Both the position numbers and the translations under genes were made by a program. Below the pieces are notes generated by a model, which saw nothing but the letters and a program-made list of their open reading frames with translations, did no database searches and was not told the origin of the DNA. Shown here piece after piece: positions 42,401-48,400 of a stretch of DNA of 64,000 nt. Positions within the stretch are counted from its first letter, which is position 1, and the number at the start of each line of letters is the position of its first letter. The stretch comes from Reclinomonas americana ATCC 50394 (taxonomy: Eukaryota). The stretch covers positions 59,361 to 123,360 of the forward strand of contig PS015030.1 of assembly GCA_048213135.1 (NCBI GenBank), in the 5' to 3' direction.

Positions 42401-45400
42401 CAGTTGCGAGAAAGACGAAGACTGCACCGCGCAATCGACGCCGTTGAACTGGATCGAGTTGTTGGCCGGCTTCGGCGAGAAGCCAAAGCCGGTGACGGTG
42501 ACCAACTGGCCGCCGGCGAGACTGCCGACGGTAGGCGACACGGATGCGACCGTCAGTAGGTACTGCGCACCGACTGGCTTGCTGGCGTCGGCCATGCGCG
42601 ACAGACCGACACCGTCGACGTAGACAGTAATCTGTTGCGGTGCGACGGTAGCAGCAGCTCCGTCCGAGGCCTCCAGCAGCTCCAGCAGGGGAGGGCCGTC
42701 AACGCCCGGTTCTGCAGCTCCGGCGCGCACTGTGCACGACACCGCCGCCTGCGAGCCGGGAGCGTCGGGCGAGTCGGGCACCAGGTCAAACACGTCGCAC
42801 TCGTTGGTTCCGATAAAGACGCGCACGGCGGTGACTTGGGAGCCGAAGCCGTTGCCAAGGACACGTACCACATCGTTGGGCTGCAGGTTGAGTGCATCCG
42901 GTGCCTCAAACGATGCGACCACTGGTGTGGACTCAAGATCGAACAGGTAGCTGCAGCGCGGCGTACCCTGTACCGGCGGAATCGCCCGCTGAAGCAGCAA
43001 GTCGGTCAGCGGCTGCAGGAGTGCCGGTGCCGAGGCAAACGTGGTGCTGTTGGAGTCGGTGGCGAACACATAGCCAATGCCGCGCTCCAGTGCCTTTTGC
43101 AGCGCGTACCCGAGCTGCTGCGATGGCACACCGGTAATCCACGCGCCGAAGCGCAGCGGGTGGTACGTGCGGTAGTACGCCGGGTCGCTGCCGGTGGTAT
43201 ACGAGGTAAACGAGGACTGGCGCACGTACACGTCGGCCAGTGGCGTTGCCAGCACACTCTCGTCAATGTCGGCGCCGTGCACGTTGGCCACCACAAAGCC
43301 AATGGAGGGGCTGTTATGCGCGGCAGCGTAGAGCGCTCGCAGGCCGGCCAGGCGATCGGCGCTGCCTCCCGCCACGTCGGCGGCAATGTCCACGTAGATA
43401 CCGCGCACATTCCAGCTGCGGTCCAGCTCGACCACGTCGGCCATAGCCTGCGTGAGGTTCGACACGTCGACGCGCGCAATCACCGTGACGGCGTCCCGCG
43501 ACAGCGTGGACAAGGCCTGCTGCCAGCTGGCAGTTGGCGCCTTGACCGGCACTGGCGGCTTCACCACCGCAGTCACGCGCACACCCGACGTGCGGCGGAG
43601 AGCGGCCACGGCCATAAAGTAGTCCGACGTGGAGGGGCTCCACGGCTCGGGCGACTGGAAGAGCGGCAGCAGTATCTCAACGTACGGCTTGGCCGGATCG
43701 AGTGGGTCGGGCTGCGGGGCCGGCGGCGTCATGGCCGCCACCTCGTCGTTGACGGCGACGGCTCGGTCGACAAAGCTGTCAAGGAACGAGCTGTCGCGCA
43801 CAAACTGCTGCACCACAAACGACTTGGCCAGCGTTCGCTCATGCATGTTGACGACCTCCACGCACACCGACAGCTGCATGAGCTGAATGGAAGCGGCCTT
43901 GCGCACGTACAACGCGTTGCCGGAAATGCTGAAGAGGCTGGAGGATTCGCACGAAGATGACAGAGTGTACGACGAGCCGGCGGCGCTGTCGACACCAATG
44001 TCAAAGCGGCCGACTAGCATGCGCGTGCGCGAGCTGACAATGAACAAGTTCGACGACAGCACAATGTCGGTGGGGGCCAGGCCGTCGGCGGTGAGTGCGA
44101 ACGGAGCGTCAAATGTTGCTCCCTGTAGATAGCACGAGTGAGTGAGTGGCACAGGCAAGGGGAAGGAAAAATAGACGACGTGCACGCAACGAGGCTGTCG
44201 GTCACACGGATGCACACGGTCAGCGCGTCGGCAGTGACGCCGCCGCGCACGTACAGCTGGTCGCCAGTGTCTTCGTCGATGAAGAACTTGTCGTTGTTGA
44301 GGGTGCCGGTGCAGGCGTCGCTGAGCGAGAACGACAGCGTCTGCTGGCCAAAGTCGGCCAACGGATCAATGTCGGCGTCCTCGCCGGTCAGCTTGCCGAC
44401 AAAGGTGTCGGCGATGGCGTGCGACGCGTACTGATCACTCGACAGGGTGATGGCCGAGGGCGCGGTGTTTGGCGAGGCGCTGAGTTGGAAGGCGCGCGAG
44501 AAGGTGTCGCCCTGTGGAATTGCGCAGTGAGCGAAGGGGGGAAGACAGGGGGAAGGGAAAGGTGCATGTAGGCGCAACATTGAGGTCGGTGGCCTTGATG
44601 CAAATGGACGCAGTGGACTGCTTAAAGTCGGCGTCCACGTACAGCGTGGTGTCGACAATGGCAAATGCGTCATTGTCGGCGTCGCCGCCCACCAGTGTGC
44701 AATCGTTGCTCAGAGCGAACGAGACGGCAGGTTCGCCAAACTGGTCCACACCCGACACGGTGGCCACCGGGCCGCCAGCAAAGTCAATCACATTGTACAG
44801 GCGGTCTGTCAAGAAGATGCTAGGGCGTGGGTTGGGCTCCGCGGTCAGCGTGAAGCCTTGGGTCTTGACGGCGCCCTGCAAATGTGCACCCACAAAACCC
44901 TTTTTGAGGATGCAGTGCAAACATACAGTTATGATTGGAAAATATTACCTGCGCGTTCGACGACTGGACGCAGATCTTGCTGGTGACAGCCGACACGTCG
45001 TTGACGCTCCACAGCTCGTTGGTGCCGTCGGGGATGGTGAACGAGTCGTTGCCGGAGGCATCGTCGCACATGTCCGCGGTCAACGCAAAGGTCAGTTCGG
45101 TGCCATTGTCGGCATCGAAGCCGGTGAGGGTGCCGACGAGGGCGGCCACCGGTCCCTTCTTGTTGTAGACAGTGTCGGAGAGGAAGACGCCCGGTCGTGG
45201 GAGGTCGTCCTTCGTGAGGATGAAGGGTTGGAGGGTGGTGTTTGACTGCGATGGAGGAGAAGGGCGAAGGAGAGGCAAAGTGAGGACGCAGGGATTATCG
45301 AGTGGAGAGCAGGAAGCAACGACAAATACGAGGAAGAGGGAGGGAGGGAGGGAGAGAGAGAGAGAGAGGAGGAGAGGAGGGAGGAGAGAGAGAGAGAGAG

Positions 45401-48400
45401 AAGAGACGGGCAGACAGGAGCAAAATACAACCTGCTCAGCACACGGCAAGGAGAGAGACAGATCAAGCACCACCAGGCAGAGGTCTCTTTCCCTCCCCTC
45501 ACTCTCCATGTAGTACTCGCGACGCAACATCAGCATCTGTGCCCTGCACGCAAATGTTGAGGGTCGAGCCGGAGATGGCGTCGAAATCGGCAATGTTCAA
45601 CACATTGGTGTCTGTGATCGACACCGCGTTGTTGCCGGATGAGGTGAGGCCATTGGTGTCGCAGTCGGTGGACAGCGCGTACGACACAAAGGCCGGGGCG
45701 TCGGGATCGGCGTTATCGAGAGTGCCGACGCGAGACACAGGCGGGTTGGTGCGGAACGACTCGCTGGACAGCGTAATGGTGGGCGGCTGTGCTGGATTGC
45801 TGTCACCATCGTCACCAGCACCCGAGCCATCACCACCGGTGCCGGAGCCGTCACCACCGGTGCCGGAGCCGTCGCCACCAGTGCCGGAGCCGTCGCCACC
45901 AGTGCCGGAGCCGTCGCCACCAGTGCCGGAGCCGTCGCCACCAGTTCCAGAGCCGTCGCTAGTGCCAGAGCCATCACCTGTGCCCGAACCGTCGCCATCG
46001 TCGCGCACAGAGAACTGACCGCGGCGACGCATCGTAATGCTGCGCTGAATGGAGATGGGAGCCACAGACGACGTCCACTTGGAGAGAGTGAAAGCCTTTT
46101 CCAGAGTAGCGCCCTACGATGGGAAAACCACCAGAAGAGAGACAGCTCGTGAGCAAAGAGCAAGCTAAAAGTACAATGACACTCTGACCGTGTCGGTGAC
46201 TCACCAACTGATCCGCCACTTGGATGCAGATCTGCTGCAGCGGCGCGGTGATGCCGCTGACAATCGACAATTGGGCGCCGTCGAGGGAGAAGTTGGCATT
46301 GTCGGTGGTGCCGTCGGTCAGCTGATCGGCGCAGCCGTCAAGCAGCGAGAAGGTGAGCACATCGCCCGCATCCGGATCCGTGGCCGTCACGGTGGCCACC
46401 ACGCCACCGTCGGTGTCATCGACATTGTACTGCACCGACGAGAGGTCCACACTGATGGGCGGTGAGTTGAAGGCGCCGAGCAGAACGGCAGTGCCGAACG
46501 ACAGGCCGTGCACAGCATTGGCGGCGGCCACGGCACTCGCCGACGAGTCCACAAAGACCGCGAACTGCGTGCCCGGATAGTAGCCGTAGTAGCACGGAGC
46601 CGTGAAAGAAGGCAGCGCCTCGCTAGGCCCGCCAGACAACAGGAACAGGTCGGCAGCACGAGAAGACTCGCGGAGCATGGCCTCGGGGACCGAGAAATCG
46701 CCCTCGATGCGAACACCGACGCGAGTGAAGCCCTTGGTGCGCGCGTACAGGTACAGCGCGTGCGCCTGCTCGGCATCGGCCACCGGCACGTTGACGAACA
46801 CGACACCGCTGTAGAGGGCGGTGGCAGCGGCGCTGTCGACCGCACTCTTGATGTCGTCAATGAACTTGGACGCGTCAATGGTGACCAGCACGGCAATCTT
46901 GGCGGCCTGCAAGTCGGCCACGTCGTTGGAGAAGTCGACCGAGTTGGTGTCGGAGACGAGCACACTGGTAGGCACAAGAGTACCGGCCGCGGCCACATTC
47001 TGCCAGCGTGCGTACGCCAGCAGATTGTCGCGATCCGACGACACACTGTCCATCGACACGAGGATCTCCAACGGCGGCGGAATCGGCGCCTGGCCGAGGG
47101 CCGTGTACGCCTTCACAAAATACTCGAAGAAGAGAGCCGTGGGCGCCGAGAACGAGTCGTCGGCGGCATCCGACACAATAAATGTCGAGCCGTGGAGACC
47201 CGTGGCGCGGGAGACGGCCTCCTTCAGCGAGCAGACATTGGCGTCGTGCACTAGCGTGGCCAGCGTCGACGGGTTGAACGCCCTGGAGGGATTGGAAACA
47301 AAGGTCAGCGCGGAGGGAGGGGAGGAGAGGTGGAGAAGGGATGGGGAGGGGGACGCAACGAGAAGGAGTCGAGTTGCAGCAAGAGCTGCTGCACGGTGCC
47401 GGAGAAGGTGACGTACATGTCGGCAGCCGACGCCTGCAGCAACGACAGCGGCGGCGAGGTGACGCCCGCCGCACGCACCACAACGAGCTTGAGGGAGCTC
47501 GTCGCGTGCGCAAAGTCGGTCAGCGCCTTCACGCTAGTTGCATCGTCGCCGTTGACACCATCGAGGAAAACACCGGAAATGTTCGCGGTACCAGCAGCGG
47601 CGGTGATGGCAGTCTGCGAGGCAGACGCAGAGCCACTGGCGTCGACGCGAGCAATCACCACCACCTTGGCGTCCACCAGCGTGCTAATGGCAGCCGCGTA
47701 CTCGGCCGAGTTGTCCGACTGCACAATGGCAATCACATTGACAGTGGCGGTGGCGGCGGCCACACTGGCCCACAGCTCGCCATCGGTCGCTGGCGACGTG
47801 CCAAAGAGCGGCACGAGCAGTTGGTCCGCCTGGTCCTTGTACTTGGGGCGCGAGGTCTCGCCGGCGAGCAACGGGGCCGACACGGGTGTCGGTTGCTCCT
47901 CGCACGAGGCGTTGACGGACCACGTGTTGACGCTGACGTTGAAGTCGACGGGGCCGCGGCCGGCCGCATGCGCCGAGGTGCGGCACACAATGGAGCTGTC
48001 CGTCAGGCTGCGCAGAGAGAAGTGAGAGGGAGACGGTAGAGTGACAACGATGGATTGCACGTGCCTGTCGATGAGGCACGGAGCGCCAGCCACGGTGATC
48101 TTGTTCTTGACGGTGACGTTGTCCGGGTCGGGCTTTTGGTCCGCAAAGATGCCGCCCTTGATGGTGATGAGCTGGCCGCCGCTGACGGAGCCAGAGGCGG
48201 GGGCAATGCTGCGCACGCGGAGAGGGAAAAGGGGAAGAGGAAAGGGAGGTGAGAAAGGGGAAAGACGCAAGAGGAGAAGAAGAAGAGGGAAGAAGAGGGA
48301 GGGCGGAGAAGAGAGAGAGAGAGAGAGAGGGAGGGAGGGAAGGAAAGGGGAAGAGAAAAATGAGAGAACGGGAGAGAGAAAATGGCGAAATACAAGGAGC

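Follow-up and report, generated by a model that had tools for sequence, protein, structure and literature searches.

Why would the gene for a giant, receptor-like surface protein carry, three times over, a domain related to an enzyme that cuts polysaccharides, and what might such domains do there? The question is raised by a locus in Reclinomonas americana ATCC 50394 (GenBank assembly GCA_048213135.1, contig PS015030.1, positions 59,361 to 123,360 of the forward strand). This whole stretch of 64,000 nucleotides (nt) is termed ‘the window’, and all coordinates below refer to it. The original prediction, made from the letters alone, placed three related segments on the minus strand, at 47823–47110, 47068–46470 and 43678–42995 (segments 1, 2 and 3). 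They were said to follow the pattern of the Spherulin4/GH135 family and to sit inside a gene resembling that of fibrocystin-L (PKHD1L1). Family profiles, PDB and structure matches, and the domain order of the gene bear this out. All three segments are Spherulin4/GH135-like (β/α)8 barrels, diverged copies that we call barrels 1, 2 and 3. Together with six cadherin-like repeats lying between the second and the third, they form a block within the array of TIG domains of a fibrocystin-L-like protein. Both component families, Spherulin4/GH135 and fibrocystin-L-like, are known; their combination was not met in the fibrocystin-L-like relatives or the literature matches examined.

Sph3, the characterised member of the Spherulin4/GH135 family, is a retaining endo-α-1,4-N-acetylgalactosaminidase. 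GH135 enzymes in general are described in PMC12054363 as retaining α-N-acetylgalactosaminidases with a (β/α)8 fold. Segment 3 is the best preserved of the three copies. Its translation runs without stops, and it matches the Pfam family Spherulin4 (PF12138) at E 1.8e-12 and 47.7 bits (gathering cut-off 30.2 bits) over profile positions 1–235 of 239. When 1.84 billion representative proteins were searched exhaustively by HMMER with this segment as the query, 30 matched at E ≤0.001, every one of them a Pfam Spherulin4 protein; neither a match to itself nor an ortholog was among them. Word-based homolog searches with barrel 3, directed at longer proteins and at proteins of near length, gave no match, and metagenomes scanned twice for relatives, once with a single protein and once with alignment A5, yielded no confirmed locus. 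For the block as a whole, no close relative turned up in the protein and metagenome collections searched.

Segments 1 and 2 are more diverged, and a family profile is needed to see them. We built a hidden Markov model (HMM) from 29 Spherulin4 domains of outside proteins, taken from the matches to segment 3 and including no sequence from the window, and ran it with all filters off over the 905 six-frame open reading frames (ORFs) of the window that are at least 40 amino acids (aa) long. The top three ORFs were those of the three segments, and no other place: the ORF of segment 3 (E 5e-33), ORF 47308–48471 with the first exon of segment 1 (E 6.7e-15, HMM positions 6–166) and ORF 45977–47533 with segment 2 (E 3.8e-7). 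The fourth-best ORF scored E 0.24. Segment 1, once spliced as described below, reaches 61.8 bits (E 3e-18 at Z=905), and segment 2 alone 27.4 bits (E 9e-8). For each of them, none of 5000 shuffled versions came near the score, the maxima being 8.2 bits for segment 1 and 8.7 bits for segment 2. This custom HMM alone finds both; Pfam Spherulin4 matches neither segment, even at E ≤10, and BLASTP shows no significant similarity between segments 2 and 3 (E 0.81). Combined in one profile with 16 relatives, the three segments retrieve the Sph3 structures 5d6t and 5c5g from the PDB at E about 5e-37. By phmmer, barrel 3 alone gives only insignificant lectin matches in the PDB (E 0.5) and no Sph3, so the family profile is required to link the two. 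Segments 1 (exon A) and 3 are 31–36% identical in two alignments and have in common a derived motif, IARVD, suggesting that duplication followed the split from the canonical family.

A side observation concerns the detection of such domains. The 912-aa stop-to-stop ORF at 41630–44365 (minus strand) has no Pfam Spherulin4 match at E ≤0.001, while 775-aa and 228-aa translations do match. The out-of-frame, biased tail of the longer ORF apparently cost it this match of 43–48 bits. An out-of-frame tail can apparently hide a Spherulin4 domain, which is worth bearing in mind when genomes with introns are scanned by ORF.

Of the three segments, only segment 1 needed correction. The coordinates predicted for it stand, but it is not one open stretch: unspliced, its translation meets stops, and a 77-nt intron splits it. 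Removal of this intron (47359–47283) yields an open barrel of 221 aa, and all three copies are then open. Two alternative donors, GTACGT after ...AD-M and GTGCAG after ...SGT, were considered and rejected, as they delete the conserved YVTF strand or break the frame. The parts of the three barrels are as follows:

47360..47832, minus strand: barrel 1, first exon part (β1 to about β6), with GVFLDG and YVTFS; from the family HMM and alignment

47283..47359, minus strand: intron inside barrel 1, 77 nt, donor GTTGCG, acceptor CAG

47110..47282, minus strand: barrel 1, last part (β7–β8), in the same open exon as barrel 2; from motif comparison with the family consensus

46470..47068, minus strand: barrel 2, the most degenerate copy, open, with GVVFVN and LFLLSGG; from the family HMM and an AlphaFold2 model

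42995..43678, minus strand: barrel 3, the best preserved copy, with GIYVDI and VYVRQ; from Pfam PF12138, an AlphaFold2 model and Foldseek

Comparison of predicted structures with Sph3 had been proposed at the outset as a check, and barrels 2 and 3 do model as TIM barrels nearest to Sph3. The AlphaFold2 model of segment 3, made from a 23-sequence alignment, is an eight-stranded β/α barrel with a predicted local distance difference test score (pLDDT) of 86.8 and a predicted template modelling score (pTM) of 0.84. Its best Foldseek matches are Sph3 entries 5c5g (E 9.9e-12, TM 0.69/0.72) and 5d6t (E 1e-11), the next entry being at 4e-6. The model of segment 2 (25-sequence alignment; pLDDT 82.8, pTM 0.81) has eight strands alternating with eight helices. 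In VIA-align, Sph3 (5c5g_A) ranks first of 48,161 chains for this model, with Z 17.8 and a root-mean-square deviation of 2.8 Å over 204 residues; the runner-up, a GH18 chitinase, has Z 14.1. Both models are confident, and for segment 1 we have sequence alone.

How are these barrels joined to the rest of the gene? Using the first G8/beta-helix region as query, we found 196 proteins of 1305–3725 aa at E ≤0.001; the counts given for relatives refer to the best 120 of these 196. They are 34–50% identical to the query. Some of those from fish, crustaceans, molluscs and echinoderms bear the name fibrocystin-L; protists and algae are represented by a Pharyngomonas kirbyi transcript and proteins of Mayorella, Stentor and Volvox. 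When three fibrocystin-L-like proteins (P0033, P0034 and P0037) are aligned to the window by tblastn, their N-terminal parts fall at 54377–49609 and their C-terminal parts at 42955–34836, in order and on the minus strand. Between these flanks the only match is a paralogous TIG at 48920–48678, and the barrels and repeats (47841–42995) have no counterpart in the three proteins. Because the relatives are colinear on both flanks and have nothing equivalent between, the block is best read as having been inserted into the TIG array of such a protein. Placement within such a gene, as predicted, is thus borne out by both the Pfam domains and the colinearity.

The claim that animal PKHD1 and PKHD1L1 proteins lack these barrels is supported as far as the 120 relatives go. 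PF12138 is present in the precomputed domains of none of the 120 relatives, fish and invertebrate PKHD1L1 included, and the family HMM has no match among them, the best being E 0.62. Nor was a combination of Spherulin4 with a fibrocystin-L-type protein found among these relatives or in the part of the literature matches examined. Several relatives do carry other inserted domains, e.g. F5/8 type C (PF00754), and domain insertion and shuffling are common in protist surface proteins. Like fibrocystin-L and its protist relatives, the window gene encodes a predicted signal peptide, arrayed TIG domains, G8 plus beta-helix twice over and one predicted membrane helix towards the C terminus, and it resembles the fibrocystin-L-like proteins at 37–45% identity over the first G8/beta-helix region, with colinearity along about 3,200 residues. 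It differs from them in its three barrels and six cadherin-like repeats, and the likeness is one of family, not necessarily of orthology to animal PKHD1L1.

Could the Spherulin4/GH135-like barrels still cut polysaccharide? In Sph3, the nucleophile and acid/base have been verified as the pair Asp/Glu222 (PMC12054363). The Asp is printed there as Asp196 and in bioRxiv 10.1101/113696 as D166; our mapping fits 166. Our profile-to-Sph3 alignment carries one offset of 50 between chain index and published numbering, and places D166 at the D of GIFFDE and E222 at the E of VVFE. The motifs quoted in the original prediction (GIYVDI, GVFLDG and GVVFVN) are present, and align with the GIFxDE block of the family. 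The accompanying claim, that the acidic positions of GIFxDE and FE are degenerate, is right in part. The Glu222 position is lost from all three copies, being S, G and Q in segments 1, 2 and 3 (segment 2 by hmmalign); among the 29 family domains it is E 24 times, D four times and V once. At the Asp166 position, where all 29 domains have D, segments 1 and 3 retain it and only segment 2 departs, with V. In the following column the family has E 21 times, Q five times and other residues three times, and the segments have G, N and I. On this alignment the decisive catalytic loss would be that of the Glu222 position; at the second residue of the DE pair the family itself varies. Since the acid/base carboxylate is absent from all three barrels, and the Asp from segment 2 as well, the alignment argues strongly that they do not hydrolyse by the two-carboxylate retaining mechanism of the family.

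According to PMC12054363 and PMC9860509, Sph3 consists of one domain, is anchored in the membrane and belongs to a gene cluster for a fungal polysaccharide. The window barrels share with it the (β/α)8 fold and the blocks of LLVPLY-type β1, GIFxD, ADxxV and vTD. Unlike Sph3, they stand three to a protein, in tandem or apart, within a giant ectodomain of receptor type; none has the Glu222 carboxylate, and barrel 2 also lacks Asp166.

Barrels of the glycosidase type that hold sugars without the canonical catalytic acid have been described from other families. GH18 chitinase-like lectins (‘chi-lectins’) bind sugars that they do not cleave. Among the fold neighbours of barrel 2 are imaginal disc growth factor-2 (1jne), SI-CLP (3bxw) and PgaB (4f9d), at Z 12.6–13.6. 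The C-terminal domain of PgaB is described as one that binds poly-N-acetylglucosamine. Like the window barrels, the chi-lectins and this domain are TIM barrels of glycosidase type that lack the canonical catalytic acid, and they are described as sugar-binding. Unlike them, they belong to other families (GH18 and GH153-type), and at 9–12% identity the likeness is one of fold only, with no homology claimed. A lectin derived from GH135 did not turn up in the searches made.

Within the family itself, the closest relative of barrel 3 is P0003/P0153, a pair of unnamed metagenome proteins of 376 aa (35% identity, E 1.3e-18). As in barrel 3, a derived STF-type ending replaces NPWD. Unlike barrel 3, P0003/P0153 keeps both the Asp and the glutamate of FE. 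It is itself diverged, retaining 22 of 42 conserved positions, and includes the start of a second Spherulin4 repeat, i.e. a tandem form. The fragment known, from a 2.5-kb contig, has no TIG or G8. It then runs into Cys/Phe-rich sequence resembling a read-through intron, and its makeup suggests that the environmental sample contained a eukaryote that has introns and tandem Spherulin4 domains. A second protein, P0010 (1363 aa; bacterial or environmental, from an assembled public run), has two Spherulin4 domains, at 823–1068 and 1054–1296. In the first of these, Val stands at the Glu222 position (VTFVG) and D in the Asp column, so that a degenerate copy stands beside a canonical one.

The reading that we favour, at a probability of roughly 0.55 and by analogy, is that the three barrels act at the cell surface as lectin-like modules without catalysis. 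The polysaccharide held would be of galactosamine type or related to it, and could come from the wall or matrix of the cell itself or be an exopolysaccharide of microbes. Several observations speak for such a role. In bioRxiv 10.1101/113696, the D166A variant of Sph3 is said to lose hydrolysis of galactosaminogalactan (GAG) and to keep binding of it, so an inactive barrel of this family can still hold the polymer. The invariant Asp and the strands lining the active-site face survive in barrels 1 and 3. In barrels 1 and 2 the acidity of the family persists (isoelectric points of 4.3–4.4 against a family median of 4.43), a character linked in PMC12054363 to binding of cationic galactosamine polymers. 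Finally, all copies are open, the two modelled copies are confident, and copies 1 and 3 are just 31–36% identical; from this openness, divergence and confident modelling we infer that the barrels are probably still under constraint. As to the ligand, the original prediction had suggested prey or biofilm polymers; by analogy, a galactosamine-type wall or matrix of the organism's own would be as plausible. Spherule walls are galactosamine-rich. The founder of the family, the name of which comes from Pfam, is a spherulation-specific slime mould protein.

Several results weigh against a lectin role, and some of these suit a different explanation, in which the barrels serve a structural purpose or bind protein and have no carbohydrate ligand, e.g. 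as a rigid spacer or protein interface acting with the cadherin-like repeats. We judge this explanation rather unlikely. The loss of family-conserved positions is heavy: where a conserved column is one in which at least 80% of the family share the residue, segments 1, 2 and 3 keep 12, 9 and 21 of 42, some of the columns missed in segments 1 and 2 being unaligned C-terminal ones, and the family itself keeps a median of 40 and a minimum of 22. With only 9–21 of 42 positions surviving, the binding site appears heavily remodelled. None of the three barrels has the NGPG or the GYVxT motif any longer, and the NPG motif is degraded; because so few conserved positions survive and these two motifs are lost, the ancestral sugar site may be gone altogether, not merely inactivated. 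The barrels also have 17–25 aromatic residues against a family median of 31, and the block is embedded among repeats of adhesion type. Even the predicted likeness to Sph3 needs some discount. Foldseek of segment 2 against the PDB returned generic and designed TIM barrels, with Sph3 not among the top 50, and the alignments behind both models are dominated by canonical Spherulin4 sequences, so that the likeness is partly built in. Against a purely structural role stand the invariant Asp, the GIF-type strand and the ADxxV strand of the active-site face, all retained in barrels 1 and 3, together with the near-median isoelectric points of barrels 1 and 2 and the persistence of polymer binding in D166A already mentioned.

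That at least barrels 1 and 3 are still enzymes, with another acid/base or as transglycosylases or lyases on a surface polysaccharide, seems quite improbable. It would accord with their Asp at position 166, with the Asp found in place of Glu at position 222 in four of the 29 family domains, which indicates that the site tolerates some variation, and with the possible transglycosylase action of Sph3 raised in a review (PMC9860509). Yet S, G and Q are not carboxylates, 28 of the 29 domains have E or D at this position, many neighbouring conserved residues are lost too, and the alignment offers no substitute acid. Least credible of all is an artefact of the gene model or assembly, by which the barrel exons would belong to a separate gene or a misjoined contig. 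The window does come from a draft eukaryotic assembly with 19 runs of N, two of them (51178–51387 and 49544–49563) in the 5′ part of the fibrocystin-L-like gene, and the databases searched yielded no annotated protein for that gene. However, the stretch 33402–49543, which bears the block, both G8 domains and the membrane helix, is free of N gaps. At both ends of the block, barrels and TIG domains lie in single uninterrupted ORFs: one holds a TIG and the start of barrel 1, another the end of barrel 1, barrel 2 and the first repeat (R1), and a third the last repeat (R6), barrel 3 and three TIGs. The seven introns inferred in or just after the block are short (67–283 nt), of GT-AG type and all frame-preserving, and the last TIG is itself split by one of them. 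These shared reading frames show the three diverged GH135-type barrels to be, as encoded, covalently part of the ectodomain of a predicted type I membrane protein.

The lectin role can be worded more specifically, and at that level it is tentative and on the whole doubtful. The barrels would be the first recognised lectins derived from GH135: non-cutting, triplicated, set in a fibrocystin-L-type protein and tethering the cell to a galactosamine-rich polymer, whether of a cyst or matrix wall or of a Pel/GAG-type biofilm. If true, this would give a concrete class of ligand to a receptor family otherwise without one; we know of no established ligand for fibrocystin or fibrocystin-L. The G8 plus beta-helix units of fibrocystins resemble those of the hyaluronan-degrading proteins CEMIP and TMEM2, a link made for the window gene solely through the name of a Pfam model, CEMIP_beta-hel. 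Three barrels derived from a polysaccharide enzyme, on a fibrocystin scaffold, fit the idea that these ectodomains handle extracellular polysaccharides; this is a testable hint, and the barrels are small, expressible domains with which to test it. For GH135, they would exemplify loss of catalytic residues, with the fold kept, in a multidomain eukaryotic protein.

The remainder of the block consists of the cadherin-like repeats, R1–R6, of about 84–107 residues each. They have two invariant Cys and the pattern VGxLT..D.D...L(S/T)F.L...C...ND.F.I....LYV...ICI.V.D. Together they span 43802..46456 on the minus strand (from the sequence, reading frames and alignment A4):

46456-46205, minus strand: R1

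45813-45529, minus strand: R2

45245-44949, minus strand: R3

44875-44579, minus strand: R4

44511-44191, minus strand: R5

44122-43802, minus strand: R6

Introns of phase 0 separate the repeats, at 46204–46114 (91 nt), 45528–45246 (283 nt), 44948–44876 (73 nt), 44578–44512 (67 nt) and 44190–44123 (68 nt), so that most repeats have a phase-0 exon to themselves: there are four single-repeat exons between those of R1 and R6. The outer two are larger. Exon 47282–46205 (minus strand) encodes the end of barrel 1, the whole of barrel 2 and R1, and exon 44122–41899 (minus strand) encodes R6, barrel 3 and three TIG domains; barrel 3 thus lies in one open exon with R6 upstream and the TIGs downstream. 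A low-complexity linker of GDGSGTG type (about 46000–45815), in the R2 exon, stands between R1 and R2. R1–R6 match no Pfam family, and a profile of the repeats finds cadherin-6 in the PDB as a weak best match (E 0.0035); of its 14 matches at E ≤1, nine are cadherins. They may represent a cadherin-like repeat type that has not been described.

The host gene as a whole occupies about 21 kb of the minus strand, from the ATG at 55151 to a membrane helix at 34090–34019, and is predicted to encode a type I membrane protein, which we estimate at roughly 4,500–5,000 residues. In order, this protein would comprise a signal peptide, the TIG array, G8 plus beta-helix twice, a Ser/Gly stalk and one transmembrane helix; the extra block of barrel 1, barrel 2, the six repeats and barrel 3 would lie inside the TIG array. 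Pfam TIG matches occur in at least nine ORFs between 55040 and 41000. The features outside the block are:

55079..55151, minus strand: first exon, with ATG 55151 and a signal-peptide-like hydrophobic stretch; read from the sequence

49609..54988, minus strand: TIG-rich N-terminal exons; Pfam TIG, and colinear by tblastn with residues about 63–710 of fibrocystin-L-like proteins

47923..48219, minus strand: TIG sharing an open exon with the start of barrel 1; Pfam E 5.9e-11, aa 85–183 of ORF 47308–48471

41899..42955, minus strand: TIG array directly after barrel 3, in the same ORF; Pfam TIG in 3 stretches, E 1.1e-21, and tblastn

41820..41898, minus strand: intron splitting the last TIG of the array, 79 nt, donor GTTGCG

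39871..41819, minus strand: TIG, first G8 (Pfam E 1.3e-30) and CEMIP-type beta-helix (CEMIP_beta-hel, E 4.6e-43)

34836..39688, minus strand: C-terminal half of the ectodomain; colinear by tblastn to query residue about 3273

within 38358-37063, minus strand: second G8; Pfam E 1.1e-20

36852-36385, minus strand: NosD-like beta-helix; Pfam NosD E 3.6e-4

about 34650-34250, minus strand: Ser/Gly-repeat stalk outside the membrane helix, with long runs of Ser-Gly dipeptide

34019..34090, minus strand: predicted single membrane helix, followed by basic residues; read from the sequence

The first exon ends at a GTAAAA donor at 55078 and, by way of a CAG acceptor, the next exon runs from 54988 straight into the first TIG. 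Over about 580 aa of the 39871..41819 region, tblastn identity to P0033 and P0034 is 40–41%. The Ser-Gly stalk and the GDGSGTG linker look like extended, possibly glycosylated regions; a weak Pfam match of the stalk to ‘Serglycin’ (E 9.7e-4) is spurious.

The splice donors of this gene deserve a separate remark. Five of the eight introns delimited (first bases 47359, 45528, 44578, 44190 and 41898) begin with GTTGCG rather than with a GTRAGT-type sequence; the other three have GTGAGT, GTAATA and GTAAAA. Within the gene span 34000–55200, GTTGCG occurs 16 times on the coding strand against six on the other. In the whole window it is not enriched (53 found against 46 expected), and at least one coding-strand occurrence (34022–34017) is inside an exon. 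Our literature search found no report of GTTGCG as an intron or splice site. The hexamer may reflect an uncommon consensus at the 5′ splice sites of this organism, or may have been copied along with duplicated exons. In the window, exons are GC-rich (about 60–64% GC) and introns are rich in CT/GA repeats. Upstream of the start of the fibrocystin-L-like gene, a minus-strand ORF at 57977–57063 matches a PB1 domain (E 5.9e-6), and is presumably a separate neighbouring gene.

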